From Candidatus Woesebacteria bacterium (GTDB lineage Bacteria; Patescibacteriota; Microgenomatia; UBA8517): a stretch of 64,000 nt of DNA. This document shows, in pieces, positions 25,572-57,965 of this stretch. The notes under the pieces are model-generated. The model searched no databases and was not told where the DNA came from. It worked only from the letters and a program-made list of their open reading frames with translations. Numbering within the stretch: the first letter of the stretch is position 1; the number at the start of each line of letters is the position of its first letter. A program made the position numbers and the translations under genes. The DNA lies in the NCBI GenBank assembly GCA_016432525.1, contig CP066693.1, forward strand, positions 482,732-546,731, given 5' to 3'.

Positions 25572-27208
25572 AACTAAAAAATTATTTAGTGCTATTTTTA
25601 ATTCTAGCATTAGCCTTATTTTTAAGACTTTATCATCTCGGATCAAATCCTCCACATCTTACCCCAGACGAGGCAAGCTTAGGTTTCAATGCTTATTCGA
25701 TTTTAAAAACTGGACGGGACGAATATGGAAAATTCGCACCTTTAATTTTCAAATCCTTTGGAGATTTCAAACCTGGGTTGTATGTGTATACGGCAATTCC
25801 ATCAATTGCAGTTTTTGGTCTTAGTGAATTTTCAGTACGCCTCCCATCGGTAATTGCAGGAGTTGTCGCAGTTATTCTTATTTATTTAATATGCAAAAAT
25901 TTATTTGATAATAAATTCGCCCTAATTGCAAGTTTTTTTTTAAGCGTTTGTCCATGGCATATTTACTTCTCAAGAGGAGCATGGGAAATAAATTTATCAC
26001 TTACATTGACTCTTGCAGGAATTTACTTTTTTCTAAAATCTTTTAAAAATCAAAAACTGCTAATTTTGTCCGCTGTTTTCTTTGCTTCGACTCTGCTTAC
26101 TTATCAAGGAGCAAAAATTTCAACATTTGCAGTGTTGTTAGCTTTGTTAGTTTCTTATCATAAAGAAGTTTTTAAATTCAACAAAAAAATAGTTGTAATA
26201 TCTACGATTTTAGCAATCACAATTTCAATTCCTATTGTTACAAGCCTTTTCAATGGGGAATTGGGGAGAGCCTCGGTATTCAGCGTTTTTTCTTATCCAA
26301 GACCACCGGATTATTTGTTAGGCCAGCTTTCTCAAGGCAACGAAAAAGCTGGAAGTATAAGCTATTTTATTTTCCATTCAGAAGCTCTAAATTTCGCACG
26401 TGGTATATTAGGCCGATATTTCAACCATTTTTCAGGACAATTTTTATTTTTTGAAGGTGATTTTCAAAATTCTCGTCATTCAGTGCCAGGTATGGGAGTT
26501 CTTCTTCAATTTGATTTAATTTTAATTTTATTGGGTCTAATATTTTTTATTCGTTCAAAAAAGAAAACCCAGAAAATATTTTTTCTTTTATGGCTTGCTC
26601 TTGCTCCAATTGCATCCAGTATAACCAAAGATTCTGTTCACGCTGTTAGGTCATACAATATGCTTATTCCATTAGTAATTCTTGAAACCGCAGGTTCACT
26701 TTTAATTTTTAAAAACTACAAAAAAATAAAATTATTCATACCGATTTTGATTTTTCTTTACTTGGCTAATTATATCTATTTTCTAGATGCTTATTTCATT
26801 CACCTTCCAGCTCACAACGCAGAATATTGGGAATATGGATATAAACAAATCGTTGAAACTGTAATGCCAATTAAATCAAATTATAAAAAAGTCTTGATTC
26901 CACAATCCTACGCTCAGCCATATATTTATTTCCTATTCTTTACTAAATATGATCCAAAAACTTACCAACAAAACTCTATGCTAAAAGAAAGTATCAGTGG
27001 TGACGTGGGCATTGTTGAAAAATTGGATAATATAAATTTTGTTAATTTTGATTGGCCAAAGAGTCAAAAAGAAACAAATACTTTATTCGTAGCTACAAAT
27101 GAGCAAATAAATTTAGACGAAATTCAAAAAGGAAAATTTAATATCATAAAAGAGATTTACTACCCCAAAAGCAAAAACTTGGCATTTAGAATTTTCGAAA
27201 GCAAATGA
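25568..27208 (+). CDS. PMT_2 / ArnT-like polytopic membrane glycosyltransferase (GT-C).
   Basis: LTPDEASLGFNAYSILKTGRDEYGKFAP. Confidence 0.7.
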   Translation: MKLKNYLVLFLILALALFLRLYHLGSNPPHLTPDEASLGFNAYSILKTGRDEYGKFAPLIFKSFGDFKPGLYVYTAIPSIAVFGLSEFSVRLPSVIAGVVAVILIYLICKNLFDNKFALIASFFLSVCPWHIYFSRGAWEINLSLTLTLAGIYFFLKSFKNQKLLILSAVFFASTLLTYQGAKISTFAVLLALLVSYHKEVFKFNKKIVVISTILAITISIPIVTSLFNGELGRASVFSVFSYPRPPDYLLGQLSQGNEKAGSISYFIFHSEALNFARGILGRYFNHFSGQFLFFEGDFQNSRHSVPGMGVLLQFDLILILLGLIFFIRSKKKTQKIFFLLWLALAPIASSITKDSVHAVRSYNMLIPLVILETAGSLLIFKNYKKIKLFIPILIFLYLANYIYFLDAYFIHLPAHNAEYWEYGYKQIVETVMPIKSNYKKVLIPQSYAQPYIYFLFFTKYDPKTYQQNSMLKESISGDVGIVEKLDNINFVNFDWPKSQKETNTLFVATNEQINLDEIQKGKFNIIKEIYYPKSKNLAFRIFESK

Positions 27209-28818
27209 AAAAACAAAAAATAATATTAATCCTAATTGTAATTTTGGCCTTTTGCCTTAGATTTTATAAATTAAATTCCTATCCTGCTTTAAATGCGGAC
27301 GAGGCAAGTATTGGTTATGATGCCTATTCTCTAATAAAAACAGGTCGTGATCAACATGGAAATTCCTGGCCTCTTCAGTTTCAATCTTTTAATGATTACA
27401 AGCCAGGCCTTTATGTATATATCGTTTTACCATTTGTAAAATTCTTATCTCTTAACGAATGGTCTATCCGAATCCCGTCTGCATTTTTAGGAGTTGCAAC
27501 TGTATATATTATTTATCTTTTAATAAAAGAATTATTTAATGATGAAAAATTCGCTCTTATTGGATCTTTTCTACTTGCAATTTCTCCTTGGCACTTACAT
27601 TTCTCAAGAAGCGGATGGGAAGTAAATATCGCAACATTTTTTATAACTTTAGGATTATTGTTTTTCTTTAAAGCTATCAAAAAGCAAAAATTTAGTTCCT
27701 TTTTCTTTTCTGTTTTGTTCTTTGTGCTATCTATGTATACTTATCATTCCGCCAGAATAGTAGTTCCGTTTCTGGGAATTGGTTTATTTTATTTTTACTT
27801 AAAAGATCTTAAAAAAAATCTAAAATTAGTAAGTATTTCAGTAATAATTTTCGGGTTACTAATAATTCCAATAACAAACAAAGATGCTCTTTCAAGGGCT
27901 GGTGGTGTAAGTATTTTTTCAGACAAAGGGATTATCTCAGGAATTAATGAACAAAGAGGGGAAGGGGCAAATTCTACTCTTACAAAGATTTTACACAACA
28001 AAGTTATAAATTACTCACTAATTTTTGCAGATAACTATTCCAAACATTTCTGGGGAGAATTTCTGTTTCTTTCAGGTGATGTAATTCAAAGAAATAGAGT
28101 TCCAGAAACAGGTCAGCTATATCTTTTTGAAATAATAACTTTGTCCGTAGGTATATATTTCATTATTAAAAAAACAAACAAAGAATGGGGGTTAATTATA
28201 TTCTGGTTAATTATTTCTCCGGCTGCAGCTGCTCTTACGTTTCAATCACCTCACGCTCTACGTGCTCATAATATGGTCATACCATTAACAATTATTAGCT
28301 CATATGGTTTGATGAAAATCCTAAATTTGCTAAAAAATCTGAAAATTAAGAACATATTTTTATTAGGAAACTTTCTTATCTTAATTTTTATTTCATGGTG
28401 TGTTGCGCGCTATCTTCATGAATACTATATTCACATGTCAAAGGAATATCCCTACTCATCTCAATATGGAGTCAAAGAAATGGTCTCATATTTATCCCAA
28501 AATCAAGGTAGTTTCCAGAAAATTTTTGTTACTGACAGATATGACCAACCTTACATTCTCTATCTTTTTTACACAAAAACTGACCCATCTTGGTTTCAAA
28601 AAAATCATAACTTAACCGCTCCGGATAAATTTGGATTTTCAACAGTTCGTGATGTAGCTTCTATTCATTTTGAGTCCATTGATTTTGAAAAACTCAAACA
28701 AAATTACCCAAATTCGCTTATAATAGGCGATACCAAAGAGATCCCCAAAGAAGCTAACATAATTAAAAAAATATATGGAGCTAATGGATTTCTATATTTT
28801 GAGGTAGTAAAAAATTAA
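27205..28818 (+). CDS. PMT_2 / ArnT-like polytopic membrane glycosyltransferase (GT-C).
   Basis: LNADEASIGYDAYSLIKTGRDQHGNSWP. It overlaps the upstream gene by 4 nt. Confidence 0.7.
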   Translation: MKKQKIILILIVILAFCLRFYKLNSYPALNADEASIGYDAYSLIKTGRDQHGNSWPLQFQSFNDYKPGLYVYIVLPFVKFLSLNEWSIRIPSAFLGVATVYIIYLLIKELFNDEKFALIGSFLLAISPWHLHFSRSGWEVNIATFFITLGLLFFFKAIKKQKFSSFFFSVLFFVLSMYTYHSARIVVPFLGIGLFYFYLKDLKKNLKLVSISVIIFGLLIIPITNKDALSRAGGVSIFSDKGIISGINEQRGEGANSTLTKILHNKVINYSLIFADNYSKHFWGEFLFLSGDVIQRNRVPETGQLYLFEIITLSVGIYFIIKKTNKEWGLIIFWLIISPAAAALTFQSPHALRAHNMVIPLTIISSYGLMKILNLLKNLKIKNIFLLGNFLILIFISWCVARYLHEYYIHMSKEYPYSSQYGVKEMVSYLSQNQGSFQKIFVTDRYDQPYILYLFYTKTDPSWFQKNHNLTAPDKFGFSTVRDVASIHFESIDFEKLKQNYPNSLIIGDTKEIPKEANIIKKIYGANGFLYFEVVKN

Positions 28819-29685
28819 ATGAAAAAACTCTCAGTTGTTTTAGCTGTAAGGAACGAAGAAAAAAATCTTTCCGATTGCCTCGATTCTATTAAAAATATCG
28901 CAGATGAGATTGTAGTAGTTGATGAGTATTCAACCGACAAAACTGTTGAAGTTGCCAAAAAGTATGGTGCAAAAGTATATCTTGAACCACACAATGAAAT
29001 ATTTCATGTTACAAAACAAAAAGCCATAGACAAAGCAAGTGGTGATTGGATACTCCAACTCGATGCTGATGAGATTGTCTCAAAAAGCTTAGGAGAGGAA
29101 ATTAAAAAGGCTATCGACATGTCTTACGACGATATTACAAATAGGAAAATTAATCCAAAAAAAGAAGAACTTTTTGAAAGGCATCAACGCCTTATAGAAG
29201 AAAGAGATGGTCAATTGGGCAAAAATAAAGGCGAAATTGTTGCCTTTTTCATTCCTAGAAAGAATTTTTTTCTAGGAAAACCTTTAATTCATGGAGGTGT
29301 CTACCCCGACGGGGTTATTAGGTTAATCAAAAAAGGTAAAGCCCATCTACCAGCAAAATCGGTTCATGAACAGATGGTAATTGATGGAAAAATCGCATGG
29401 CTAAATAATGATCTTGAACACCACGACTCTCCTAACTTGCGTCGATATTTGATACGTCTAAATCGTTATACAGATCTTCATGCACGTGAGTTAAAAGAAA
29501 AAAAATCCCCTAAAAATATTTTTTACTTCTTTTATTATAGTGTTATAAAATTTAAACTCGGTTTTCTGAAACTTTTCTTTCTGCATGCCGGATTTAAAGA
29601 TGGTATAAGAGGATTTTTGTGGTCATTTTTATCTAGTATGCATTACCCCATTGCTTACTTTAAATATTGGACGGGATATAATTAA
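28819..29685 (+). CDS. GT2 family glycosyltransferase.
   Basis: LSVVLAVRNEEKNLSDCLDSI...IVVVDEYSTDKT...ILQLDADEIV. It is a paralog of 4657..5556 and 6458..7228. Confidence 0.7.
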   Translation: MKKLSVVLAVRNEEKNLSDCLDSIKNIADEIVVVDEYSTDKTVEVAKKYGAKVYLEPHNEIFHVTKQKAIDKASGDWILQLDADEIVSKSLGEEIKKAIDMSYDDITNRKINPKKEELFERHQRLIEERDGQLGKNKGEIVAFFIPRKNFFLGKPLIHGGVYPDGVIRLIKKGKAHLPAKSVHEQMVIDGKIAWLNNDLEHHDSPNLRRYLIRLNRYTDLHARELKEKKSPKNIFYFFYYSVIKFKLGFLKLFFLHAGFKDGIRGFLWSFLSSMHYPIAYFKYWTGYN

Positions 29686-29689
29686 GAGT

Positions 29690-30703
29690 ATGAAAGTAGC
29701 AATTGATTCCGGTCCCATAACCTCAGGTCATTCAGTTCGTGGAATTGGTGTCCACACTAGTGAGTTAATAAATCATTTAAAAAAACTTAAAGGATTGGAA
29801 ATAGACGTAGTTGATTTCTCAAAATCAGATCTTAAAAATTTCGATATTGTTCACTATCCATCTTTCCATCCACATATTCTCTCACTACCAATTTTTAAAA
29901 AAAATAAATCAATAGTTACTATTCACGATTTAATTAGATTAATTTACCCCGAAGCTTATCCACCTGGATTAAAGGGTAAATTCAACTTTTTTCTTCAAAA
30001 ACTAGCTTTGAAAAATATCGACGCAGTAATAACTATTTCAGAAACTTCCAAGAAAGACATTATAAGGTTTTTGAATATTCCTCCAGAAAAGATATTTGTA
30101 ATCTATTTAGCTCAAGATGAAATTTATAAAAAGATAAAAGATAAGAAAATTTTAAATGCAATCAAAAAAAAATACGATCTTCCTAATAAGTTTGTGCTTT
30201 TTGTGGGAGATGTAAATTACAATAAAAACCTTAATAATTTGGCCAAAGCTTGTAAAATAGCTAAAATTCCTCTTGTGATGGTAGGCAAACAAACCAAGGT
30301 AGAAAACTTGGATAATCATATTGAAAATTTATCTTGGATTAACTTTCTTAAAAAATACAAAAACGATAGGAATATAATAAGACTTGGCTTTTTGGATAGA
30401 GAGGAAGTTGTTGCAATTAATAATCTTGCAACTGTCTATTGTCAGCCATCTCTATATGAAGGCTTTGGACTTCCTTGTTTAGAAAGCTTAGCTTGCGGAA
30501 CTCCAGTTGTTGCAGCTAAAACTCAAGCTATTGTTGAAATTTTAGGTTCAGCCGCAACATATGTCGATCCATATGATCCTTCTAGTATCGTTAAAGGATT
30601 TGAAAAACTTGTCAAAAATCCTAAACTTCCAAGAATCTACTCCTGGGAAAAAACAGCACTTGAAACATATGAAGTTTATAAAAAAGTTTTTCAAAAAAAA
30701 TAA
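29690..30703 (+). CDS. GT4 family glycosyltransferase (GT-B).
   Basis: The C-terminal motifs (FVLFVGDVNYNKN...PSLYEGFGLPCLESLACGTPVVAA) match GT4. I place the start at ATG 29690 (MKVAIDSG). The longer track ORF from 29651 overlaps the upstream gene. Confidence 0.65.
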   Translation: MKVAIDSGPITSGHSVRGIGVHTSELINHLKKLKGLEIDVVDFSKSDLKNFDIVHYPSFHPHILSLPIFKKNKSIVTIHDLIRLIYPEAYPPGLKGKFNFFLQKLALKNIDAVITISETSKKDIIRFLNIPPEKIFVIYLAQDEIYKKIKDKKILNAIKKKYDLPNKFVLFVGDVNYNKNLNNLAKACKIAKIPLVMVGKQTKVENLDNHIENLSWINFLKKYKNDRNIIRLGFLDREEVVAINNLATVYCQPSLYEGFGLPCLESLACGTPVVAAKTQAIVEILGSAATYVDPYDPSSIVKGFEKLVKNPKLPRIYSWEKTALETYEVYKKVFQKK

Positions 30704-31838
30704 AACTCTAAAAATTTTTATTTTAACTTTAATTATTTGGAGGGTCTTTTTATTTTTCCCAATTTTTATCTCACAATTTATATTTCCTTTAAGTAGAAGT
30801 TATCTTGGCGGAGGGCTTAAATGGTATTTAACAAATCCTTATCTTTATGGTTGGGCCAATTTTGACGGTGAGCACTACCTCACAATTTCAAGAGATGGAT
30901 ACAGAATGTACGAATATTTTTTCTTTCCTGTTTTTCCTCTATTAATTAGATTTATAGCACAAATTTTCAGTAATACTTTTGTTTCTCACCTTGTAACATC
31001 GATAATAATTTCAAACATTTCATTTATCATTTCATTATTTGGATTTTGGAAATTATTAAGACTAGATTACGACAAAAAATTTTCACTTTTTTGTATTTTT
31101 ACACTACTCTGTTTCCCAATGTCTTTTTTCTTTACTTCAACCTATACAGAGTCAATATTTTTTGCGTTTATTATATGGACTTTTTACTTTGCAAGAAAAA
31201 AAAGATGGTTTTTTGCAAGTCTTTTAGGACTTTTTGCGTCAGCTACACGAATAGTTGGAATACTAATGTTACCAGTAGTATTTATTGAAATAATAATGAC
31301 CAGAAAAAATATTAACTACAAAATAGTTAACAGTCTATTTACGTTACTTATCCCGTTGGGGCTGTTAAGTTTTATGTTTTATCTTAAAAGACAGACGGGG
31401 GATCCCTTAATTTTTTTAAATACTATAAATATTTTTGGAAATCAAAGGTCGTCTCATCTTATTCTTCTTCCTCAAGTTTTTTACCGATATTTTTTTAAAA
31501 TTATTCCAAACTTAACACTTTCTTATTTTCAAACTAATTTTTTAACATTTATCGAACTAGCATCTGGAATAATTCTTTTAGTATTATCTGTAATCTCTTT
31601 TTTTAAATTGAGACTAAGTTATTCAATATTTTTAATATCTGGCTACATTGTTCCAACTTTAACAGGAAGTTTCTCATCATTGCCAAGATATATGTTAGTT
31701 TTATTTCCTGCATTTATTTTAATAGGAAAATTTTTGGAGAAAAAATCAGAATTTGCTAAAGTCCTAATACTATCAATATCGCTCTTTACTTTAGTTTTGG
31801 CGGAAAGTATTTTTATGAGAGGTTACTTTATTTCATGA
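30669..31838 (+). CDS. Polytopic membrane protein, GT-C-like (possibly PIG-V/GT76- or DUF2029-like mannosyltransferase).
   Basis: About 390 aa from ATG 30669 (MKFIKKFF). It has an N-terminal TM helix, then the loop GGGLKWYLTNPYLYGWANFDGEHYLTISRDGY and 9-10 further TM helices. The track ORF from 30561 appears to use an upstream alternative start inside the preceding gene. Confidence 0.45.
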   Translation: MKFIKKFFKKNKTLKIFILTLIIWRVFLFFPIFISQFIFPLSRSYLGGGLKWYLTNPYLYGWANFDGEHYLTISRDGYRMYEYFFFPVFPLLIRFIAQIFSNTFVSHLVTSIIISNISFIISLFGFWKLLRLDYDKKFSLFCIFTLLCFPMSFFFTSTYTESIFFAFIIWTFYFARKKRWFFASLLGLFASATRIVGILMLPVVFIEIIMTRKNINYKIVNSLFTLLIPLGLLSFMFYLKRQTGDPLIFLNTINIFGNQRSSHLILLPQVFYRYFFKIIPNLTLSYFQTNFLTFIELASGIILLVLSVISFFKLRLSYSIFLISGYIVPTLTGSFSSLPRYMLVLFPAFILIGKFLEKKSEFAKVLILSISLFTLVLAESIFMRGYFIS

Positions 31839-33094
31839 AAAAAATCAAAGAAGTATTAAATCATCCAATGGCTTCCAGTAGTGCACTTCTTATCTTTGGG
31901 AGTTTAGGAATAAATGTAATCAATCTAATATATCACTTTGTGATGGGTAATATTTTAGGTCCAGTAAATTATGGAACATTACTAAGTCTTTACTCAATCC
32001 TTTACATTTTAAGCATAGTTCCACTTTCTTCAAGCGTTGCGATAGTTAAATTTATATCCAAATCTAAAAGCAAAAAGGAAAGAATGGTTGTATATAATGC
32101 AATTAAAAAATTGATATTGTATATTGCAATTTTTGGTTCAGCATTTGTAGTTATTCTTTCTCCAATAATCTCAAATTTTTTAAATATTAAAGATGTAGTA
32201 AGCACTTTACTTACCGCAGGGGTATTATTTTTTAGTCTTATTACTCTCGTAAATCAGGCGAGTTTGCAAGGCATACTCAAATTTATGGGAGTTGTCCTTC
32301 CCAACTTCGTTTCAAGTGCAATAAAACTTATTCTAGGGGTAGTTTTAGTTTGGGTCGGTTTTTCTGTTGAAGGGGCAATGTTTGCAGTTGTGATAGGTGT
32401 TGCAGTTGCCTACATTCTTTCGCAATCAATGGCTAAAAAGCATTTTTCAGGAAATTCTAAGAAAGAATTTGATTTGAAACCATTCTTCAATTATTCAAAG
32501 CCAGTCTTGCTTCAAGCATTTGCGTTTACCTCCCTATTCACAACAGATGTAATTTTGGTTAAGCATTTTTTTAGTCCATTCGACGCAGGGCTGTACGCAG
32601 CTCTCTCAACTTTAGGAAAAATTGTCTATTTTGGAGCCTCTCCTGTTGCGTCAGTGATGTTTCCCTATGTTTCCGGTAAACACTCACGGGGAGAAAAATA
32701 CATTAAAGTTTTATGGGGAGCTTTACTTCTTACAGCAAGTATTTCATTTGGAGTAGTGGTTATTTATGCTCTTTTCCCAAATCTGGTAGTTAAAATTCTA
32801 TACGCTAAATATATTAAAGCTGTTCCATATTTGGTCTGGATGGGAGCCTTTATCGCTTTCTATACAATTGCAAATCTATTAACTAATTTCTTCTTATCGA
32901 TTGATAAATTAAAAATCGTATTAGTTCCCTTGTTTTTTGCAATTCTCCAGATTATATTAATTTGGTTCTACCACAACTCAATTCTGCAAGTCATTCAAGT
33001 GTCCCTAATTGAGATGATATTTCTGTGCCTCATATTATTTACATATTTAGTTTATAATCGGCTAAGTTTAACAAATGAAGCGAAGGCAAAATAA
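31835..33094 (+). CDS. MOP-superfamily flippase (Wzx-like). It is the second copy in the locus.
   Basis: 419 aa with 12-14 TM helices and a Polysacc_synt-like N-terminus (ALLIFGSLGINVINLIYHFVMGNILGPVNYGTL). Confidence 0.55.
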   Translation: MKKIKEVLNHPMASSSALLIFGSLGINVINLIYHFVMGNILGPVNYGTLLSLYSILYILSIVPLSSSVAIVKFISKSKSKKERMVVYNAIKKLILYIAIFGSAFVVILSPIISNFLNIKDVVSTLLTAGVLFFSLITLVNQASLQGILKFMGVVLPNFVSSAIKLILGVVLVWVGFSVEGAMFAVVIGVAVAYILSQSMAKKHFSGNSKKEFDLKPFFNYSKPVLLQAFAFTSLFTTDVILVKHFFSPFDAGLYAALSTLGKIVYFGASPVASVMFPYVSGKHSRGEKYIKVLWGALLLTASISFGVVVIYALFPNLVVKILYAKYIKAVPYLVWMGAFIAFYTIANLLTNFFLSIDKLKIVLVPLFFAILQIILIWFYHNSILQVIQVSLIEMIFLCLILFTYLVYNRLSLTNEAKAK

Positions 33095-33851
33095 AAAGTT
33101 TTTGTCTGTAGTTGTCCCTGCCTATAAACAGGAAAAAACTATTAAAAAAGACCTTAAAATAATTGATAAAACTCTCAAAAAAGGTCTTAAAAACACAAAA
33201 TATGAAATAATTTGTATTGTTGATGGAATAGTTGATAACACTCTAAAAGAAGCTAAAAAAGCGAAATCTTCTCATATAAAAATCTTCTCATATAAAGAAA
33301 ACAAGGGAAAAGGGCATGCTGTACGCTTTGGTATGTCAAAATGTAAAGGAAATCTCATCTCCTTTCTAGATGCAGGAATGGATATTAGCCCAAAAGGAAT
33401 AATGATGCTTATGGCCCATTTAGAATGGTACAACGCAGATGTTGTGGTTGGATCAAAAAGACACCCCGTTTCCAGAGTTAACTATCCTCTTGAAAGACGC
33501 ATTTTAAGTATAGGTTACCATAAGCTAGTTAGAATATTTTTCGCCCTTCCACTTACAGATACACAAAGTGGTATTAAAATATTTAGAAGAAAAGTTGTAA
33601 GAAAAATTTTACCTAGACTCTTAGTTAAAAAATACGCAATGGATATAGAAATGCTTGCGGTTGCTAAATATTTGGGATTTAATCGTATTTACGAAGCTCC
33701 GATAGAGGTTACTTTCAGTAGGCAAGCTAGTGCTATAAAATGGTCAACTAGCATTAAAATGGCATGGGACACAATAGCAGTCTTTTATAGATTAAAAATA
33801 TTACATTATTATAATGATTATAATCGCAAAAAATGGGGAAAAAATAAATGA
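33075..33851 (+). CDS. GT2 polyprenol-phosphate glycosyltransferase (DPM1/GtrB-like, soluble type).
   Basis: LSVVVPAYKQEKTI...EIICIVDG...KGKGHAVRFG...FLDAGMD...ADVVVGSKRH...TQSGIKIFRR matches the DPM1 / dolichyl-phosphate sugar synthase signature regions. Confidence 0.6.
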   Translation: MKRRQNKKFLSVVVPAYKQEKTIKKDLKIIDKTLKKGLKNTKYEIICIVDGIVDNTLKEAKKAKSSHIKIFSYKENKGKGHAVRFGMSKCKGNLISFLDAGMDISPKGIMMLMAHLEWYNADVVVGSKRHPVSRVNYPLERRILSIGYHKLVRIFFALPLTDTQSGIKIFRRKVVRKILPRLLVKKYAMDIEMLAVAKYLGFNRIYEAPIEVTFSRQASAIKWSTSIKMAWDTIAVFYRLKILHYYNDYNRKKWGKNK

Positions 33852-34972
33852 ATATTCTTGTATTTTCATGGAGAGGTCCTAAACATCCTCTAGCAGGAGG
33901 AGCGGAACAAGTAGATCATGAACACCACAAAGGCTGGATAAAAGCGGGCCATAAGGTAGTTCTTTTTACCTCAAATTTTAAAAAAGGGAAAGAAAAAGAG
34001 ATTATAGACGGGGTAAAAATTATTCGTAGAGGAAACCAAATCCTAGGAGTACATCTCTCGGCATTCCTTTGGTATTTTCTCAAGAAACATCCTAAGTTTG
34101 ATTTAGTAGTGGATGAATTTCATGGAATTCCTTTTTTCACCCCACTTTATATAAAAGAAAAAAAAATGGTCGTTCTTCAAGAAGTTGCAGGCAAAGTCTG
34201 GCTTAAAAATGAATTAATCTGGCCATTAAATTTAATAATAGGATTTTTGGGATACTTATTTGAACCTTTAATTTATAAACTATACAAAAAAGTTCCATTT
34301 ATGGTTGGTTCTAATTCAGCAAAAATTGCTTTAGAAAAAATTGGAATTCAAAAAAAAGACATCACAGTTGTTCAACATGGTGTAATTACAAAAAAACAAA
34401 CAAAAAAAATTATCAAGGAAAAAATAAAAACCATAATCTTTTTGGGAACTTTAGCAAAAGATAAAGGAATAGAGGACGCATTGAAAGTTTTTTCAATTCT
34501 AAAATCAAAAAGAGAATTTCAATTTTGGGTAGTTGGGAAATCCGATACCTTTTATTTAAAAAAACTTAAAAAAATGTCTAAAAATCTAAAAATCTCAAAA
34601 CAAATTAAATTTTGGGGATATGTCTCTTCAGAAAAGAAATTTGAGCTACTCTCAAAAGCTCATCTATTATTAAACCCATCCATACTCGAAGGTTGGGGAC
34701 TTGTGAATATAGAGGCAAACGCAATGAAAATTCCAGTCGTTGCCTATAATTCTCCAGGTCTTGTAGATTCAGTACAAAACGGATTTAACGGGTTGATTTG
34801 CAAAAACAATTCTCCCGAAAACATGGCACAAAATATAGAAAAAATCTTCGCAAGTCACAAACTCTATCTAAAATTAAAAAAAAATTCCTTGATTTGGAGC
34901 AAAAATTTTTCTTGGGATAAATCTAGAAAATTAAGTTTAAATTTAATTAACGAAATCACTAACAATGCTTGA
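33848..34972 (+). CDS. GT4 family glycosyltransferase (GT-B).
   Basis: IIFLGTLAKDKGIEDALKVF...NPSILEGWGLVNIEANAMKIPVVAYNSPGLVDSVQNGFNGLI. Confidence 0.65.
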   Translation: MNILVFSWRGPKHPLAGGAEQVDHEHHKGWIKAGHKVVLFTSNFKKGKEKEIIDGVKIIRRGNQILGVHLSAFLWYFLKKHPKFDLVVDEFHGIPFFTPLYIKEKKMVVLQEVAGKVWLKNELIWPLNLIIGFLGYLFEPLIYKLYKKVPFMVGSNSAKIALEKIGIQKKDITVVQHGVITKKQTKKIIKEKIKTIIFLGTLAKDKGIEDALKVFSILKSKREFQFWVVGKSDTFYLKKLKKMSKNLKISKQIKFWGYVSSEKKFELLSKAHLLLNPSILEGWGLVNIEANAMKIPVVAYNSPGLVDSVQNGFNGLICKNNSPENMAQNIEKIFASHKLYLKLKKNSLIWSKNFSWDKSRKLSLNLINEITNNA

Positions 34973-34997: not shown

Positions 34998-35507
34998 ATG
35001 TGTATGTTTAAAAGGTTTCTTGCTTTTACTCTGCTAATAGCACTTTCTTTAGGGCTAGCTTCTCCAACATTTGCACAAGTTCCTAGCCCTACTCCTACTC
35101 CTAAAATAGAAAATGTAAATTCTTTTGAACTTTTCTGGCCGATGGCTCCAGGTAAAACAATGGCTGACTCATTATATTTTCTTAAATCTTTAAAAGAAAA
35201 AATTAGAGGACTTTTAATTTTTGGTACACCACAAAAAGTAAATTACTCTGTCTATCTTTCCACTAAGCGTATATTGGAAGCTGAAAAACTCTATAACGAC
35301 AAAAATAAGGACCTAGGAAATAAAACAATGGATGAAGCAATAAAAGACCTTAATAAAGCCGTTTCTCAAAACAGTAAAGGAACAGACGAGACAAGTGACA
35401 GGTTAGCTAGACTTGATAAATTTTTAACCTGGTTTACAACAAAAAATTCTGCCGACAAATCTAAAATTCAAGATGCACTAAGTTTAGTGAAAAAACTTCT
35501 AGGATAA
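34998..35507 (+). CDS. Small secreted protein. It has a signal peptide and is a paralog of 41041..41532.
   Basis: Signal peptide LAFTLLIALSLGLASPTFA-QV, then a PSPTPTPK stretch and a helical, Lys-rich body. It shares a segment with 41041..41532 (FGTPQKVNYSVYLSTKRILEAEKL vs FSKTSKVDFYEYLAEKRLAEISYV). Confidence 0.4.
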   Translation: MCMFKRFLAFTLLIALSLGLASPTFAQVPSPTPTPKIENVNSFELFWPMAPGKTMADSLYFLKSLKEKIRGLLIFGTPQKVNYSVYLSTKRILEAEKLYNDKNKDLGNKTMDEAIKDLNKAVSQNSKGTDETSDRLARLDKFLTWFTTKNSADKSKIQDALSLVKKLLG

Positions 35508-36248
35508 CTATTTTTTAGCTACTATCAAAACATCTAATGGAAACTCTGTATTTTTATCACCCACAAAATGTCTTATTCCTATTGCTATTAGATTTAAAAA
35601 AGGTGTGGCGATAAGACCAAAAAACAAAAGAAATAAAGAAAACACTTTCGAAAATCTATTTTTTCGAGAAATACTATTCACATTTTTGAAATAAAAAACC
35701 AAAAATGATTGAATCCAAAAATCAAAGAAGGATCCTTGATATTCTGACTTTGAAATTCTGAATTTTGCATCTTTTAAAAACATCTCTAGCCTCGGTTTTG
35801 TAAATCTATTCTTGTCTAAATTACCATCATGTATTGGATACATAAAAGGAGTTGTCAAAATTATTGATCCTCCCTTTTTTAATACCCTAAAAGCTTCATT
35901 AAAGGCCAACTGTGGTTCATCTAGATATTCTAATACTTGAAGCATAGCGGCAATATCAAAGCTCTCTTTTTTAAAAGGTAGACTATTGGCATCAGCATAG
36001 AAATCAGGTTTTTGTGAAGATTTATACAATTTAGATGTTTTTGGGTGATCAACTCCAGTGTAAGATTTTATATATTTTAATAAATAATCTTTGTAAGGAG
36101 CCCTCCCTGATCCTATATCCAAAACAGCAACCTCACCTCTTTTTTTAATTTCTAAAACTCCTGCCCATGCAAAAGATAGTATAATAAATTGAGGATGAAA
36201 AATAGTTCTTCCAAAAATCTCAGTAAATCTAACCCAATAATTTTTCAT
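35508..36248 (-). CDS. Class I SAM-dependent methyltransferase with a C-terminal membrane anchor.
   Basis: Motif I VLDIGSGRAPY. Other matches: FDIAAMLQVLEYLDEP and LKKGGSIILTTP. Two C-terminal TM helices. Confidence 0.65.
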   Translation of the reverse strand: MKNYWVRFTEIFGRTIFHPQFIILSFAWAGVLEIKKRGEVAVLDIGSGRAPYKDYLLKYIKSYTGVDHPKTSKLYKSSQKPDFYADANSLPFKKESFDIAAMLQVLEYLDEPQLAFNEAFRVLKKGGSIILTTPFMYPIHDGNLDKNRFTKPRLEMFLKDAKFRISKSEYQGSFFDFWIQSFLVFYFKNVNSISRKNRFSKVFSLFLLFFGLIATPFLNLIAIGIRHFVGDKNTEFPLDVLIVAKK

Positions 36249-37045
36249 TTTGAAAAACCCCTAGCTATTTGAGACATAGTTTTTATTTCTAATAAATTTT
36301 TGTCTCTTTTAGATTTTGCATATTTTAAAATATTCTCAAATTCTCTAAAAAGAGACTTCTCATTATCAGCAAAATCAACAGGATGGAACCATAAATGAAA
36401 AATTTGACCTTTTGATATTGCCTTGTCAATTCCAGACTTTGCCCTTCTTAATCGCAATCCATAAGGAATATATTTTCGTACTCCTCGGGCGGAAACAAAA
36501 TACATCGAACCAGGAATATTTATAAGCCCTTTATCTTTTATAGGATTACTTGTTCTAGGCGGAATATTAAGTAATAGGTTGATTAATTGGATAATATGTT
36601 TAGTCGTATTAGTTTCATCAGGACCTCTATATGCTTTAAATCCACTTTTTTTAAGCAAATCTAAATAAGCAATGTGATTTCTGGGGAATATAAAGCTAAA
36701 AGCTCTTGGCTTTTTAAATTCTTGTTTTGCTTTTTTGCGGGATATCTTAGTAAAGTCTTCATGGGAATAGGAATGACTTGCAAGTTCGTGGATTCTCTTT
36801 TTCTTTATCATTTCTACGATGTCTTTGCCACACCAAAATTCATCTCCTTTTTCATACAATTTTCCAACAATTGCCCAAGTGGTATTAATATTATATTTGC
36901 TAAAAAGCGATAAAAGCTTTTTAATTATATCTCTTTCTTTTTTTGTTCTTTCTATAAATTTTGAATAATCAAGATCTTTTCGTCCCCAAAGTAGTTCCGT
37001 ATCAATTGATATGCAAAAAGTTCCGTTCATTTCTCTAATATCCAA
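36245..37045 (-). CDS. Polysaccharide deacetylase family protein (CE4 / NodB-homology).
   Basis: A divergent motif-1 region (CISIDTELLWG) and the His-His motif ASHSYSHED. It overlaps both flanking methyltransferase genes (4 nt and 19 nt). Confidence 0.5.
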   Translation of the reverse strand: MDIREMNGTFCISIDTELLWGRKDLDYSKFIERTKKERDIIKKLLSLFSKYNINTTWAIVGKLYEKGDEFWCGKDIVEMIKKKRIHELASHSYSHEDFTKISRKKAKQEFKKPRAFSFIFPRNHIAYLDLLKKSGFKAYRGPDETNTTKHIIQLINLLLNIPPRTSNPIKDKGLINIPGSMYFVSARGVRKYIPYGLRLRRAKSGIDKAISKGQIFHLWFHPVDFADNEKSLFREFENILKYAKSKRDKNLLEIKTMSQIARGFSK

Positions 37046-37749
37046 AAAAGAGTTGGAGCAAAATATTTAGCAATTGGGGCAAAAAGAAAAGAAAAAAAAG
37101 GGAGATTATATCCAAATTTCTTAGGAAAAAGCATTATGGCTACAGTATATTCATTAATCTCAAATTTTTTCAAAACATTTTTTAACTCCCAATAACTCAT
37201 AGGGTGTTCGTAATATTCATCTTTTCCACGAAAAATTTTTATATAAATATCTGCAAGTGGTTTGGGAAGATAAGATAAAAACAATAAATCATGATGTGCC
37301 TCCATAGGCCAAAGTTTGTTTTGAGCAGCAAGATAACAAACCCCATTTGGTTTTAATACTCTATAAATCTCAGAAAATAATTTTTTCGGGTCAGGAACAT
37401 GTTCATAAACATGGGTACAAATAACTATATCAAAACTACTTTTCTTAAAAGACAGCTTCATTGCGTCTTCTATTTCAAAACGAAGATTAGAAGACCTAAA
37501 TTTATTTTGCGCAAATTTTATTGCTTCTTTATCAATATCGGTACCTGTCACTTTCTTGAAATGTTTAGCCAAAACATTATCAATTATCCCAGTGGAAGCA
37601 CCAATATCTAAAACTTTCTTATATTTCAAATTATCATCCCCAAAAAAATCACCAAGTGTTTTAACAATTCTAAGTCCTTTCAACTCTCTTGATTTTCGGT
37701 CATACATTTGAGTCCTTTGAGATGCATAATTTTCTTGGTATCTTCTCAT
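37027..37749 (-). CDS. Class I SAM-dependent methyltransferase.
   Basis: Motif I VLDIGASTGII, then VTGTDID, FDIVICTHVYEHVPDP and LKPNGVCYL. Confidence 0.7.
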   Translation of the reverse strand: MRRYQENYASQRTQMYDRKSRELKGLRIVKTLGDFFGDDNLKYKKVLDIGASTGIIDNVLAKHFKKVTGTDIDKEAIKFAQNKFRSSNLRFEIEDAMKLSFKKSSFDIVICTHVYEHVPDPKKLFSEIYRVLKPNGVCYLAAQNKLWPMEAHHDLLFLSYLPKPLADIYIKIFRGKDEYYEHPMSYWELKNVLKKFEINEYTVAIMLFPKKFGYNLPFFSFLFAPIAKYFAPTLFWILEK

Positions 37750-37811: not shown

Positions 37812-38963
37812 ATGAGAATTGGCATTATTACTCACAATTATCCAAGTAACTCCAAAGAAAGGAAAGATGCTGGCACTTTTGTATACGATTTTGCTATGAA
37901 CTTGATAAGTAAAGGTTGCGAAGTATACATATTAAGTCCTAATTTTAAAGGTAAAAAAGAGAATTACACAAAAGCACCAGTCACTTGGTTTACCTGGCTA
38001 GGTGGAAAGAAAAAACTAGGAGATCTTTCTTTAACAAATCCAACACATCTTCTATATCTTGCTGATTTAATGATTCGAGGACCAATAGCAACAATTAAAT
38101 TTGTCAAAAAAAATAAGATAGATTTTTGTATCTGTATGTGGGCTTATCCATCTGGTTTTTTTACAATTGTCGCTAAAAAATTCACAAAAGTCCCTTATGG
38201 AATTATTACTCTTGGATCCGATATTTTCGTCTATACAAAATTTCTTCCTGCTAAATACTTAATTTCTTACATTTGTAAAAATGCAGACGCTTTATTTGGT
38301 AATAGTTACAGAATTTGTGATGCCGTAGAGAACCTTAGCAAGAAGAAATGTGAATTTTTAGCACTTTCAACTTCTTTAAAAATCAAAATACCCAAAAACT
38401 TAAAAATAAAGAATAAAAAATTTACCTTTCTTTTTGTTGGAAGGTTAGAAAAGGTAAAGGGACCTGATATTTTAATAGAATCAGCCAAAATCCTGAAAAA
38501 ACAAAAAATAAAATTTGAAATCCTAATGGTTGGTCCAGGAACAATGTATGAATTTTTGAAAGAAAAAATAAATCAATATAAGTTACAAGATTATGTAAAG
38601 TTATTAGGACCGATATTTAATCGAAAAAAATTATCAAATCTTTTTCTAACAACGGACAGCTTGGTAATACCATCAAGAAGTGAAAGTATGCCTTTTGTTT
38701 TAATTGAAGCAATATATGCAGGACTTCCAGCAGTAACAACAACCGTAGGGGATATGAAAAAAATGGTCAATAAATACAAAATCGGTTTTACAACAGATCC
38801 AGAAAACCCTAAAAAATTGGCTGTTGCCATGACAAGGGCCATTAAAGAAGGCAAAAATTTTAAAAATAGAAGAAAAAGAAATTTCGATAAACCAAGAAAA
38901 ATTTACGACACTGATGTGTCAATTAAAAGTTTCATTAAAAAAATAAATAAAGTACTAGAATGA
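37812..38963 (+). CDS. GT4 family glycosyltransferase (GT-B).
   Basis: FLFVGRLEKVKGPDILIESAKIL...PSRSESMPFVLIEAIYAGLPAVTTTVGDM. It is divergent from the methyltransferase at 37749. Confidence 0.65.
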   Translation: MRIGIITHNYPSNSKERKDAGTFVYDFAMNLISKGCEVYILSPNFKGKKENYTKAPVTWFTWLGGKKKLGDLSLTNPTHLLYLADLMIRGPIATIKFVKKNKIDFCICMWAYPSGFFTIVAKKFTKVPYGIITLGSDIFVYTKFLPAKYLISYICKNADALFGNSYRICDAVENLSKKKCEFLALSTSLKIKIPKNLKIKNKKFTFLFVGRLEKVKGPDILIESAKILKKQKIKFEILMVGPGTMYEFLKEKINQYKLQDYVKLLGPIFNRKKLSNLFLTTDSLVIPSRSESMPFVLIEAIYAGLPAVTTTVGDMKKMVNKYKIGFTTDPENPKKLAVAMTRAIKEGKNFKNRRKRNFDKPRKIYDTDVSIKSFIKKINKVLE

Positions 38964-41023
38964 AAAAAATATCGTTTTTGATAGGACTTATTTTTTTTGT
39001 AATTGGAGTTATCACTTTACCTCATTACAACATTAATTTCGACGCCATAAATCACCTTTCTAGGGGGCAAGCTTATCTACATTATTTTCTGACAGGCAAA
39101 AAAGATTATTCTGATCTTCCATCATTTGTTCGCTATTTTCAAAACCCTGAAAACCTTTTTTTACAGTCAGATATTTCAAAGTCTCAAATTGTCAAAAGAA
39201 GCGTTTACCAGCACGACTCTACCACTTTTGATTATTTTATACAGAATGACGGCTACGGACATCCACCTTTAAGTGATATTTTTTCCTCTGTATTTAATTT
39301 TGTGTTTTTCCAGAAATTGGGAATCATAAATGACATTGATTCATATCATTTGTACGGAATATTTTTGGCAAGTATTTTAGTTGCATTGATTTTTAAATGG
39401 ACAGCAAAAACATACTCTAAATTTGCTGGTATTATAGCCTCATTATCCTTGTCGTTGTATCCACTTTTCTTTTCTCAATCACATTTCAACACAGAAAAAG
39501 ACGTACCAGAAACAGCCTTTATAGCCTTTTTTATCTATTCATTTTGGAAGGGGATTACCCAAAAAAGTACAAAATGGATTATTCTTTCTGGAATATTTTT
39601 AGGTTTTGGAGTTGGAACAAAGCTAAATATTGCATTTGTAATTTTTATAATTATGCCTTGGCTTATTTCCTTTATACTTTCCAATTTTCCTAAAAGAAAA
39701 TTCGCAATTAAATCTTTTGTCAAAAAAAATTTATCAATTTTAATTTCACTTTTTTTAATTCCTCTAATTGCTTTTTCGATCTTTTTAATAAGTTGGCCAT
39801 ATCTTTGGGGTGATCCAGTCGAAAATATTTCAAAAGTGATTTCCTTTTACAAAGAAATAGGATTATCACAGACAAGCCAACAGTTAATTCCAGTTGCGGG
39901 AGTAAATACTTTCGCAATCCAGAGTCTAATTTTTATAACTCCTTTGGTTATTTTATTTTTTGCGATTTTAGGAATTATTTTTGTCATCAAACGTATAAAA
40001 TCCGAGAAACAAAAAACTGGTTTTTTGTTTCTATTGTGGTTTGCAATTCCTATTCTTAGAGTAAGCATATCAGGCACAAATATCTATGGAGGCCTAAGGC
40101 AAATTATGGAATATATCCCAGCAATGGCAATACTGTCGGGTTTAGGGGCACAAACCATTGCTGAAAAAATTATTAAAAAATTTCATTTTAATAAAAATTT
40201 AGTATATTTCCTTTTAGTTCTATTCTTTGTTCCTCTTATTGCTAAATTTATAAAAATTCACCCAAACGAAAATCTTTACTACAATCCTTTGATTGGTGGT
40301 CTAGCAGGAGCTAAAGAGAGAAATTTTCCATATTGGGGAGAAACCTACGGCGAGACATATAGACAAGCCACTGTATGGTTTGCTAAAAATGCTTCCAAAA
40401 ACTCCAAATTGGTATTTGCATACGAGCTTATGCCAAATATTCCAATAATATTTTTAAGAACTGACATAAACTTCTCCAATACTTTTCGAAGTGGATATTT
40501 AATGAATGGAGAGTATGCAGTGACTTTAATAAGCCAAGGTGTGGATAAACGCTCTTATTACGATATGTATTTAGAAAATTTCTTAAATCCTGTATATAAA
40601 GTTACTGTTGATGGTGTAGATGTACTAAAACTCTGGAAAAACGATTCTAAGCATCTTAAAATGCCTTTAAAAGAGAATCTTGATAAAAGCCTAACTTACA
40701 AAATTAATAAAGATGGAATTTTATTACAAACAAAGACACTACAAAAACTATCTCGATTAGAGATTGATTATTTAGATAAAAATTGCCCTCCAAAACTTTC
40801 TTCGGGAGTTATAGAAATTTCAAAAGACAATCAAAATTGGGATCGTCTGCCAGGAGTTTTACCAGATGACTGGAGAATTACATCTCTTGGTGAACAGCCA
40901 TCTCACGGTAAATTTATAGAGCCTTTTGTGGGTCAGAACGCAAAATTTATCAAGCTTGAATTAACTCCATCAAATACTTGTTTAAAAAATATCAAATCGT
41001 CAAGGTTATATTATTTTGAATAA
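38960..41023 (+). CDS. PMT_2/ArnT-like GT-C membrane glycosyltransferase with a C-terminal beta-sandwich-like (carbohydrate-binding-like) domain.
   Basis: 687 aa. The N-terminal loop NINFDAINHLSRGQAYLHYF and the segment FDYFIQNDGYGHPPLSDIFSS are shared with 42506..44605 (INWDEPYHFNRGQAYLNYI; FDYIIKNDGYGHPPTNDILSS). About 12 TM helices, then a soluble tail of about 200 aa. Confidence 0.6.
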   Translation: MKKISFLIGLIFFVIGVITLPHYNINFDAINHLSRGQAYLHYFLTGKKDYSDLPSFVRYFQNPENLFLQSDISKSQIVKRSVYQHDSTTFDYFIQNDGYGHPPLSDIFSSVFNFVFFQKLGIINDIDSYHLYGIFLASILVALIFKWTAKTYSKFAGIIASLSLSLYPLFFSQSHFNTEKDVPETAFIAFFIYSFWKGITQKSTKWIILSGIFLGFGVGTKLNIAFVIFIIMPWLISFILSNFPKRKFAIKSFVKKNLSILISLFLIPLIAFSIFLISWPYLWGDPVENISKVISFYKEIGLSQTSQQLIPVAGVNTFAIQSLIFITPLVILFFAILGIIFVIKRIKSEKQKTGFLFLLWFAIPILRVSISGTNIYGGLRQIMEYIPAMAILSGLGAQTIAEKIIKKFHFNKNLVYFLLVLFFVPLIAKFIKIHPNENLYYNPLIGGLAGAKERNFPYWGETYGETYRQATVWFAKNASKNSKLVFAYELMPNIPIIFLRTDINFSNTFRSGYLMNGEYAVTLISQGVDKRSYYDMYLENFLNPVYKVTVDGVDVLKLWKNDSKHLKMPLKENLDKSLTYKINKDGILLQTKTLQKLSRLEIDYLDKNCPPKLSSGVIEISKDNQNWDRLPGVLPDDWRITSLGEQPSHGKFIEPFVGQNAKFIKLELTPSNTCLKNIKSSRLYYFE

Positions 41024-41040
41024 AACTGTTATATACTAAA

Positions 41041-41532: not shown

Positions 41533-41533
41533 T

Positions 41534-42472: not shown

Positions 42473-42505
42473 AGTATAAACTGAATTATAATACAATATC
42501 TAAAA

Positions 42506-48508: not shown

Positions 48509-48512
<4 letters not shown>

Positions 48513-49264: not shown

Positions 49265-49267
49265 TAT

Positions 49268-51723: not shown

Positions 51724-51747
51724 TTTTTATGTTATACTTGTGCCGAT

Positions 51748-57149: not shown

Positions 57150-57173
57150 TTCAAAGAGAGTGTAGCATTACAA

Positions 57174-57950: not shown

Positions 57951-57965
57951 ATATCAATTCTACCT

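Follow-up and report, generated by a model that had tools for sequence, protein, structure and literature searches.

Introduction

The GacI, GacJ, GacK and GacL proteins of S. pyogenes form a transmembrane glycosylation system of several components, termed 'type b', with a flippase of the Wzx type (PMC8035078), the three-component system for a pentofuranose in Citrobacter uses a flippase of the MATE family (PMC11127046), and the AglD/AglR/AglS system of Haloferax combines a DPM1-like enzyme of glycosyltransferase family 2 (GT2) with the Wzx-like protein AglR that was implicated in flipping (PMC3871713). In the present work we have analyzed a stretch of 64,000 nucleotides from a Candidatus Woesebacteria bacterium (GenBank assembly GCA_016432525.1, contig CP066693.1, positions 482,732 to 546,731), below termed the window, in which genes are named by their lowest coordinate. 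A cytoplasmic synthase with GT-A fold (33075), a flippase of the Wzx type from the MOP family (31835) and a glycosyltransferase of the GT-C class (30669) are contiguous here and conserved together. Earlier work had proposed flippases of the Wzx and MATE types for multi-component systems, so that the three-component logic itself was known before. Within the reach of our searches, what appears to be new is an ALG5-like synthase family without membrane anchor and with the motif DxGxD, its hard-wiring or, in other lineages, fusion to the flippase and to a family 4 glycosyltransferase (GT4), its wide conservation in Microgenomates, and a paralog of GtrB that lacks the DXD motif and is accompanied by a putative sugar-remodeling operon.

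The closest counterpart is the Gac system, in which an anchor-less cytoplasmic GT-A enzyme making an undecaprenyl-phosphate (C55-P) sugar is likewise encoded together with a Wzx-type flippase and a GT-C enzyme. However, Gac has a small membrane partner, GacJ, whereas relatives of the window module fuse the synthase to the flippase itself; the window synthase furthermore is ALG5-like with a DxGxD motif, and two GT4 genes and a second GT2 gene accompany the module. An unassigned small open reading frame (ORF) as a candidate for a GacJ-like partner was not found between 28819 and 35507, although no search with a GacJ sequence was made. With eukaryotic ALG5 the 33075 protein shares the motifs GS(K/R)xH, DTQxGxK, (W/Y)A(F/M)D(V/I)E and NxGKGxA(I/V)R, and the product of ALG5 is used by GT-C enzymes (ALG6, ALG8 and ALG10), as it would be here. 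ALG5 has an N-terminal transmembrane (TM) anchor and a DAD motif, 33075 has neither, and its lipid would be a bacterial polyprenol. To our knowledge the flippase for eukaryotic donors of the Dol-P-Glc or Dol-P-Man type is still unidentified, whereas synthases of the window type are genetically fused or coupled to a MOP protein. The AglD/R/S and AglJ systems of Haloferax volcanii are similar in that the monophosphate lipid receives its sugar from a DPM1-like GT2, flipping involves a candidate of the Wzx type (AglR or Agl15) and a membrane glycosyltransferase finishes the reaction outside, but they are archaeal, use dolichol as the carrier and make protein N-glycans, their genes are unfused, and aglD is unlinked. 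Finally, the GtrA/B/C system of Shigella and E. coli prophages and the ArnC/ArnE-F/ArnT system resemble gene 44586 of the window, which matches end to end, has intact motifs and two TM segments and lies next to a GT-C gene; in contrast to these systems, no flippase gene of the GtrA or SMR type was detected in the window, and a further GtrB-shaped protein, 60947, is devoid of the catalytic motifs.

We consider it probable, although by no means assured, that 33075 and 31835 make and flip a polyprenyl-phosphate hexose for the GT-C enzymes, that 44586 is a classical synthase, and that 60947 is non-catalytic, with the GT2 protein 57174 doing the work in its operon.

An ALG5-like glycosyltransferase family

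An earlier note on this stretch, made from the sequence alone, had described three polyprenyl-phosphate sugar synthases (33075, 44586 and 60947) and two MOP flippases (1452 and 31835) that would serve an array of GT-C enzymes. All five ORFs lie where it had placed them and on the same strands. The TQSG motif that it had pointed out in 33075 is present within a full GT2 domain, reading TDTQSGIK, and the complete set of motifs comprises VDGxxDxT, D99-A-G101-M-D103, G-S-K128-R-H-P, R141, S145 and D162-T-Q-S-G-x-K168. No hydrophobic or TM segment was found in the protein. A phmmer search of the PDB yielded the dolichyl-phosphate mannose synthase DPMS from P. furiosus as the top match (5mlz, 1e-10, residues 10-210), with ArnC and GtrB next, and among the NCBIfam models PgfS, PpgS and ArnC ranked at the top, while the model for AglJ was also matched (2e-8).

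The designation 'DPM1-like' given to 33075 in the earlier note has to be corrected, as ALG5 is closer by BLASTP as well as by phylogeny. Yeast Alg5 was matched with 90 bits (253 aa) and human ALG5 with 83 bits, at 31% identity over 213 residues, compared to 73 (human) and 46 bits for the DPM1 sequences, 60 for DPMS, 58 for ArnC and 22 for WcaA; WcaE gave no match. Exact look-up confirmed the human and yeast reference sequences of both ALG5 and DPM1. In a neighbor-joining (NJ) tree the 33075 family and ALG5 form a clade in 165 of 200 bootstraps. The polyisoprenyl-phosphate glycosyltransferases (PI-GTs) group together in 154 of 200, including 33075, 44586 and 60947, with seven generic GT2s of the window and E. 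coli WcaA and WcaE outside. This tree, with verified ALG5 and DPM1 references, supersedes an earlier small one in which the PI-GT clade reached 53%. The comparison thus supports the placement of 33075 within the PI-GT clade, apart from enzymes such as WcaA and WcaE that extend oligosaccharides on undecaprenyl diphosphate (Und-PP), and the clustering with other transferase types that would have spoken against the earlier note was not observed. As 33075 has no N-terminal signal anchor or TM segment and carries DAG instead of DAD, its family is, by sequence, a sister family of ALG5 and not its ortholog.

This family is large. A word-indexed search yielded 5381 homologs, the best 120 of which show 68–77% identity, a full HMMER scan reached 32,901 representative clusters, and at least 551 GTDB species genomes contain a member. 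A protein identical to 33075 has been recorded from a Candidatus Woesebacteria metagenome-assembled genome. Where record titles specify a lineage, they name Woese-, Davies-, Shapiro-, Gottesman-, Levy-, Ames- or Blackburnbacteria, WWE3, or no more than Patescibacteria or Microgenomates group, and two contigs are labeled as Saccharibacteria. Many of the module-bearing GTDB contigs (L012, L013, L017, L020 and others) carry the label 'uncultured Gammaproteobacteria bacterium', which seems to be a placeholder or a wrong label.

Active site and putative membrane contact

In P. furiosus DPMS (PfDPMS), residues D91 and Q93 of the motif 89-DADLQH-94 bind the metal, R117, R131 and S135 are the residues for the acceptor phosphate, and a D91A variant retains residual activity (PMC5526996). 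We mapped these roles after shifting the chain index of the structure by 22; in the alignment with 33075 the counterparts of R117, R131 and S135 are K128, R141 and S145. Among 151 sequences (33075 and 150 representatives at 50% clustering), K128 is retained in 149, R141 in every one and S145 in 146, and the close family likewise shows little or no variation at these three positions. At the metal site, DADLQH of DPMS corresponds to D99-A-G101-M-D103, and in the close family G101 is invariant while residue 103 is either D or E. Distant relatives, including the fusion proteins described below, have DxDxD, and the Microgenomates subclade has thus lost the middle aspartate but kept an acidic residue at the position of the glutamine ligand in DPMS. 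In view of the residual activity of PfDPMS D91A, the 33075 enzyme is probably active. The lack of the second aspartate of DXD is a trait of both anchor-less PI-GT-like proteins of the window, 33075 with D-A-G and 57174 with D-G-N, while the membrane-anchored 44586 keeps DAD.

In the structural model of 33075, 237 residues superpose on DPMS, and helices 139–156 and 223–245 are found at the places of the DPMS interface helices IFH1 and IFH2.

A conserved module with a flippase and a GT-C enzyme

Gene 33075 is part of a module with the conserved order GT2a, GT4a, GT-C, MOP, PI-GT, a variable insert, and GT4b. The stop codon of the MOP gene lies 20 nt inside 33075, whose own stop codon overlaps the start of GT4b by 4 nt (ATGA). 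In 57 of 74 related loci the gene directly upstream of the PI-GT is a MOP gene, in 49 of 74 a GT-C gene lies upstream of the MOP gene, and 52 of 73 have GT4b no more than 2.5 kb downstream. Arrays of PMT or PMT_2 genes frequently lie just 5' of the module. Across these loci the PI-GT retains 50–75% identity versus 32–57% for the MOP protein. Conservation so far above that of the neighbors is a better fit for an enzyme with universal substrates than for a serotype-type extender.

The GT-C gene was initially delimited as an ORF from 30561, overlapping the preceding GT4 gene by 143 nt. Its homologs, around 383 aa in length and named 'Gpi18-like mannosyltransferase', are some 40 residues shorter, so that the ATG at 30669 is the probable start. 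Within 51 members of this family, Pfam assigns 14 to PF04188, 14 to PMT_2, six to GT87 and one to ALG10. The AlphaFold2 model of the window protein (mean confidence score pLDDT 87.7) has a GT-C fold, and the possibility that it is a Wzy polymerase was therefore rejected.

The coupling also takes the form of gene fusions. Among the 150 top representative clusters there are at least 16 MOP-GT2 fusions, two of which are MOP-GT2-GT4 (P0293 and P0358), and five more proteins are GT2-GT4 fusions. Two fusion loci stem from organisms with 58% and 73% G+C, one of them with neighbors that contain GGDEF domains, and the coupling is thus not confined to Patescibacteria. In the 58% G+C locus (L095) a MOP-GT2 fusion lies beside two GT4 genes and a Gpi18-like GT-C gene. 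In the 73% G+C locus (L096, positions 7001–13907), which is from outside the candidate phyla radiation (CPR), the gene next to that of a 1061-aa MOP-GT2-GT4 triple fusion, on its downstream side, encodes 1218 aa without a Pfam match; this protein has about nine TM segments in its N-terminal part and may be a large GT-C-like partner. The termini of MOP proteins are cytoplasmic, and if this holds here, a GT2 domain fused to the C-terminus would be located in the cytoplasm. Synteny and fusions support a physical and evolutionary coupling of 33075 to the MOP protein 31835 and the 30561 GT-C protein, and from the gene overlap and the MOP-GT2 fusions in relatives we infer that the MOP protein is the membrane partner of the TM-less 33075.

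The gene order GT2-GT4-membrane protein-Wzx-GT2-GT4 also resembles that of a locus for O-antigen or exopolysaccharide. Accordingly, a phosphoglycosyltransferase (PGT) encoded elsewhere might start a repeat unit on Und-PP. In this case 33075 would be one of several soluble extenders and the MOP protein a Wzx like any other, and a function similar to that of a polymerase or ligase would fall to the 30561 product. The initiating PGT is often unlinked, as in the case of E. coli WecA, and the DXD motif of 33075 is atypical for PI-GTs. Nevertheless, 33075 groups with ALG5, DPMS, ArnC and GtrB rather than with the Und-PP extenders WcaA and WcaE or the window's seven generic GT2s, it keeps the acceptor-phosphate residues of DPMS, its degree of identity across hundreds of species is unlike that of serotype-type extenders, and the fold of the 30561 product is GT-C and not Wzy-like. 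We thus regard such a classical Wzx pathway as unlikely.

Flippases and initiating enzymes

Both MOP proteins reported in the earlier note match Wzx-type families above the Pfam gathering scores, and to this extent its count of two flippases is correct. As flippases for synthase products, however, only 31835 can be tied to a synthase. The 1452 protein scores above the gathering thresholds with 177 bits for Polysacc_synt_3 and 74 bits for Polysacc_synt, it matches an NCBIfam model for MOP flippases (1e-37), and a tblastn search with E. coli WzxC found this gene exclusively (1e-15), but no link of 1452 to any PI-GT was detectable. Searches of solved structures with both MOP proteins returned matches at chance level, and the assignment is hence based on Pfam and NCBIfam.

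A GtrA-type flippase was not found, neither as a match to PF04138 among the scanned ORFs of the window, nor by tblastn with E. coli YfdG (GtrA) in the window and 1.02 Mb of related loci, a search of limited sensitivity. Likewise, none of the window ORFs matched the Pfam families for PGTs of the Bac_transf or MraY/WecA type, and E. coli WcaJ, WecA and RfbX as well as the Wzy queries WbbH and WcaD had no tblastn match in the window and the same 1.02 Mb.

The absence of a PGT near the module in about 90 loci is of relevance for a scheme similar to the one of AglJ. Here, 33075 would prime polyprenyl monophosphate with the first sugar and leave the extension to the GT4s and GT2s of the module; the MOP protein would flip the resulting short oligosaccharide, and the GT-C enzyme would transfer all or part of it. 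In Haloferax, AglJ initiates the assembly of the N-glycan on dolichol monophosphate, and flipping of a Dol-P-tetrasaccharide was proposed for the Wzx-like Agl15 (PMC3871713). The scheme would account for the four glycosyltransferases in the conserved module and for the triple fusions that put a GT4 onto the chain of flippase and PI-GT, and it is in line with the match of 33075 to the AglJ model. On the other hand, oligosaccharide carriers linked through a monophosphate are not established in Bacteria, and that the GT2 is so much better conserved than the GT4s is compatible with this scheme and with transfer of a single hexose alike. We consider it a serious possibility, but not the probable one.

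Proposed pathway

From homology, fold, conserved acceptor residues, synteny and gene fusion we infer the product, the sugar, its flipping and the acceptors as follows. Lacking an anchor of its own, 33075 would transfer a hexose to polyprenyl phosphate, most likely glucose from UDP-glucose, a guess that is derived from its affinity to ALG5. The MOP protein 31835 would flip this product, and the adjacent ALG12/PIG-M/Gpi18-like GT-C enzyme, probably also the neighboring PMT_2/YfhO array, would use the flipped donor. Independently, 44586 would be a standard membrane-anchored synthase of the ArnC/GtrB type that feeds the convergent PMT_2 GT-C enzyme, while for 60947 a role as a non-catalytic membrane partner is more likely than one as a third synthase, 57174 being the real candidate for the synthase of its operon. 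The sugar of this operon could be remodeled by a flavin adenine dinucleotide (FAD) oxidase, a TIM barrel protein similar to keto-sugar epimerases and a protein similar to short-chain dehydrogenases/reductases (SDRs).

Several points weigh against this pathway. For a scheme of synthase, flippase and GT-C enzyme, the two GT4s of the module, the extra GT2 and the GT4 of the triple fusions are superfluous, and an oligosaccharide built on the lipid is the better fit for them. Wzx-type proteins classically flip oligosaccharides linked to Und-PP. The trees are distance-based NJ trees with few references, and their support of 77–86% is moderate. With an identity of 31% to ALG5, the sugar cannot be read from the similarity. 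At the position of the metal-binding D91 of PfDPMS the 33075 subclade has an invariant glycine, and activity would depend on D/E103 substituting for D91. The putative interface helices are of modest amphipathicity, with moments of 0.36 and 0.22 overall and of 0.53 and 0.48 in the best windows of 11 residues. The searches for PGT and GtrA were carried out with E. coli queries and covered ±6–8 kb around the module, so that a PGT may be encoded elsewhere in the genome. Lastly, the reading of 60947 as a pseudo-enzyme derives from the loss of motifs; its family is under purifying selection and could make use of a different chemistry.

A canonical ArnC/GtrB-type synthase and its likely GT-C partner

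The proposal of three donor synthases in the earlier note applies best to 44586, which is canonical, and extends to 33075 as a member of the PI-GT clade, but is doubtful for 60947, where the DXD motif and the equivalent of D157 in GtrB are lost. Both 44586 and 60947 are, as had been described, GT2s with two C-terminal hydrophobic segments, and both can be aligned to ArnC and GtrB over their full length. In 44586 the motifs are intact (DDGSKD, DADLQDDPKE, and an ArnC-like Asp loop, D165-MN-CGFK), and all elements of the PI-GT architecture are present, with the GT-A domain, the DXD motif, the Asp loop, a juxtamembrane region and two TM helices. Matches in the PDB were ArnC (9hwj, 2e-43, residues 16–306), GtrB (2.5e-27) and DPMS (2.5e-19). 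The NCBIfam model for ArnC aligns over positions 7–293 of 316 with 180.7 bits, and as this is far from the equivalog cut-off of 529, the sugar cannot be deduced from it. By these features 44586 has the looks of a bona fide, canonical polyprenyl-phosphate sugar synthase, and the PMT_2 GT-C enzyme 42506 is the likely consumer of its donor. Two other genomes (L020 and L022) likewise have a PMT_2 gene paired with a GtrB-type homolog of 63–67% identity.

A GtrB-shaped protein without catalytic motifs

The 60947 protein matches GtrB (5eke, 6e-23) and ArnC from end to end, and its family joins the GtrBs in 171 of 200 bootstraps of the NJ tree. In GtrB, D94 and D96 form the DXD motif and D157 is the catalytic aspartate, the exchange of which to asparagine abolishes activity (PMC4728340). 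In the family of 60947, with about 110 sequences that are all from genomes of the Microgenomates type, DAD is replaced by (N69/D34)-(I/L) and a gap of one residue, the position of D157 is taken by Y75, F14 or H12 (numerals are occurrences), and VDDGS has become VDNNS. An apparent loss of the equivalent of R122 was rejected, as the loop is merely three residues shorter with a conserved K or R. Given the loss of DXD and of the D157 equivalent, and the inactivity of the GtrB D157N variant, an active synthase is doubtful; 60947 probably is non-catalytic or mechanistically divergent, and no conventional synthase. This loss was absent from the earlier note, as were the fourth, DPMS-like GT2 gene, 57174, and the lack of a detectable GtrA-type flippase.

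If the earlier note is taken literally and 33075, 44586 and 60947 are all active, each would produce a C55-P-sugar of its own, several different sugars might be transferred, as it had suggested, and both MOP proteins would flip these donors. All three are within the PI-GT clade by sequence, each of the genes adjoins a GT-C gene, and the conservation of the 60947 family at 45–70% identity implies that it is functional in some sense. But besides the inactivating D157N exchange in GtrB (PMC4728340), which corresponds to an aromatic residue in the DXD-less 60947 family, the MOP protein 1452 is WzxC-like and belongs to a separate GT2/GT4 cluster, and the PI-GT-like gene 57174 is left uncounted. Among the explanations discussed here we consider this one the least probable.

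In the window, 60947 stands at the head of its conserved operon. Genes for the same set of proteins, SDR-like, TIM barrel, TM-less GT2, FAD oxidoreductase and PMT_2 GT-C, accompany the homologs of 60947 in the loci L089–L092, and in L092 the SDR and TIM barrel genes are fused. The TM-less GT2 of the set, 57174, also matches models for Dol-P-hexose transferase, AglJ and PpgS and is located inside the PI-GT clade of the NJ tree; its family conserves SR(F/Y)xKGGK and YTDxxxGF and has D-G-N at DXD. Judged by these matches, 57174 is the candidate synthase of the operon and a fourth PI-GT-like gene. Taken as a whole, the gene set 55166–61945 suggests remodeling of a sugar donor by oxidation, epimerization and reduction, loosely similar to DprE1/DprE2 of the mycobacterial route to decaprenyl-phospho-arabinose. 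The analogy to DprE1/DprE2 and to the Citrobacter system is limited to this operon and lies in its joining of a lipid-linked sugar synthase and a GT-C enzyme to an FAD oxidoreductase and an SDR-type protein. In contrast to DprE1/DprE2, the oxidase is of the DAO type, a TIM barrel is present, there is no synthase dependent on phosphoribosyl pyrophosphate, and remodeling on the lipid is not implied. Divergent from 60947 is the PMT_2 GT-C gene 61966, whose CBM_4_9 domain suggests a polysaccharide rather than a protein as the acceptor.

A further step would be to see in the MOP protein 31835 a dedicated flippase for polyprenyl-monophosphate hexose that forms one machine with the ALG5-like enzyme, both being joined in a single polypeptide in several phyla, at times together with a GT4, and in 60947 a pseudo-enzyme that anchors a TM-less synthase. 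This picture is tentative, and we deem it possible rather than probable.

Gene content of the window

The window has a G+C content of about 31% and is almost entirely coding; scans for tRNAs and with Rfam found no RNA genes in it. Almost every gene relates to glycans, so that nearly all 64 kb are given to glycosylation. The GT-C array of the earlier note is real. Matches to PMT, PMT_2 or YfhO above the Pfam cut-offs were obtained for ten products and a weak match to PMT for another, and the Gpi18/ALG12-like product of the 30561 ORF adds to these. In total, there are 11 GT2 genes, six GT4 genes, seven methyltransferases, one polysaccharide deacetylase and two carbamoyltransferases. The window would appear to be a glycosylation island in which few GT2s on the cytoplasmic face charge polyprenyl phosphate and many GT-C enzymes consume the donors outside the membrane. 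The features are compiled in Table 1.

Table 1. Location and properties of the genes discussed in the text (positions within the window).
Position	Strand	Feature	Remarks
79-1482		Polytopic protein	No family
1452-2945	+	Second MOP flippase, WzxC/TuaB-like	Polysacc_synt_3 5e-52; separate GT2/GT4 cluster
2908-4629		Polytopic protein	No family
16778-18460		Polytopic protein	No family
18494-19735		Polytopic protein	No family
28819-29685	+	GT2a	Pfam; conserved upstream of GT-C and MOP in most related loci
29651-30703	+	GT4a	Pfam; conserved upstream of GT-C and MOP in most related loci
30669-31838	+	GT-C, Gpi18/PIG-V/ALG12-like	Mechanical ORF starts at 30561; invariant N-F-D-G-E-H-Y loop
31835-33094	+	Wzx-type MOP flippase	Polysacc_synt_3 56.8 bits, Polysacc_synt 53.4 bits; ~10 hydrophobic segments
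33075-33851	+	ALG5-like PI-GT (GT2), TM-less	258 aa; full Glycos_transf_2 domain, Pfam E 7e-21
33848-34972	+	GT4b	Pfam Glycos_transf_1, 4.8e-37
42506-44605	+	PMT_2 GT-C	699 aa; Pfam; convergent, overlaps 3' end of 44586
44586-45557	-	ArnC/GtrB-type polyprenyl-phosphate sugar synthase (predicted)	323 aa; two C-terminal hydrophobic segments, residues ~248-307
53527-55188		Polytopic protein	No family
55166-56254	+	FAD oxidoreductase, DAO-type	Pfam/NCBIfam
56232-57149	-	OTCase	Inserted between operon genes in the window
57174-57950	-	TM-less DPMS-like GT2	DPMS 5mlz 1.2e-5
57966-59384	-	472-aa protein	No family; inserted in the window operon
59359-60174	-	Keto-sugar-epimerase-like TIM barrel	Resembles 5-keto-L-gluconate and psicose 3-epimerases
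60171-60950	-	SDR-like protein	Pfam/NCBIfam
60947-61945	-	GtrB-shaped protein, GT-A and two TM	332 aa; hydrophobic segments at residues ~232-304
61966-64000	+	PMT_2 GT-C with C-terminal CBM_4_9	PMT_2 1e-13, CBM_4_9 2.5e-5; runs off the window end

The GT-C genes are concentrated in the regions 8213–28818, 38960–44605 and 61966–64000, with six of them arranged head to tail in 20344–28818. Genes for modifying enzymes (carbamoyltransferases, methyltransferases and the deacetylase) are located at 49978–53523, 12084–12731, 35508–37749, 41534–42496 and 48509–49981. The carbamoyltransferases are a tandem pair of the NodU/CmcH type and one of the seven methyltransferases is of the FkbM type; the glycans produced are probably O-carbamoylated and O-methylated. 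Small proteins with a DUF5667 domain and a single N-terminal hydrophobic segment are encoded at 34998–35507 and 41041–41532. Such genes are recurrently found 3' of GT4 or PMT_2 genes, in the window as well as in the Patescibacteria loci L001, L003, L089 and L092, and a role as acceptor proteins, or as accessory subunits of GT-C enzymes, is conceivable for their products. Between two GT-C genes, at 25230–25571, an ORF of 113 aa has an N-terminal zinc-ribbon signature, with weak Pfam matches, and two hydrophobic segments.

Biological implications

Patescibacteria are tiny, mostly uncultured epibionts whose surface chemistry is essentially unknown, and our literature search on glycosylation in Patescibacteria/CPR and on the motif DTQCGFK retrieved nothing specific. 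With its GT-C enzyme, MOP protein and ALG5-like synthase present in at least 551 species genomes, the module is a candidate for a core pathway of surface glycans in Microgenomates. Even if these enzymes prove ordinary, the analysis would improve the annotation of a very large and uncharacterized GT2 family. The DxGxD variant and the DXD-less paralog of GtrB can be tested against the catalytic model derived from the structures of DPMS and GtrB. The fusions of synthase and flippase, with or without a GT4, offer a direct test of whether Wzx-type proteins move sugars linked through a monophosphate, which so far has been proposed for GacK, AglR and the MATE protein of Citrobacter. If they do, the membrane crossing of donors of the Dol-P-Glc and Dol-P-Man type would have a tractable model in these fusions.

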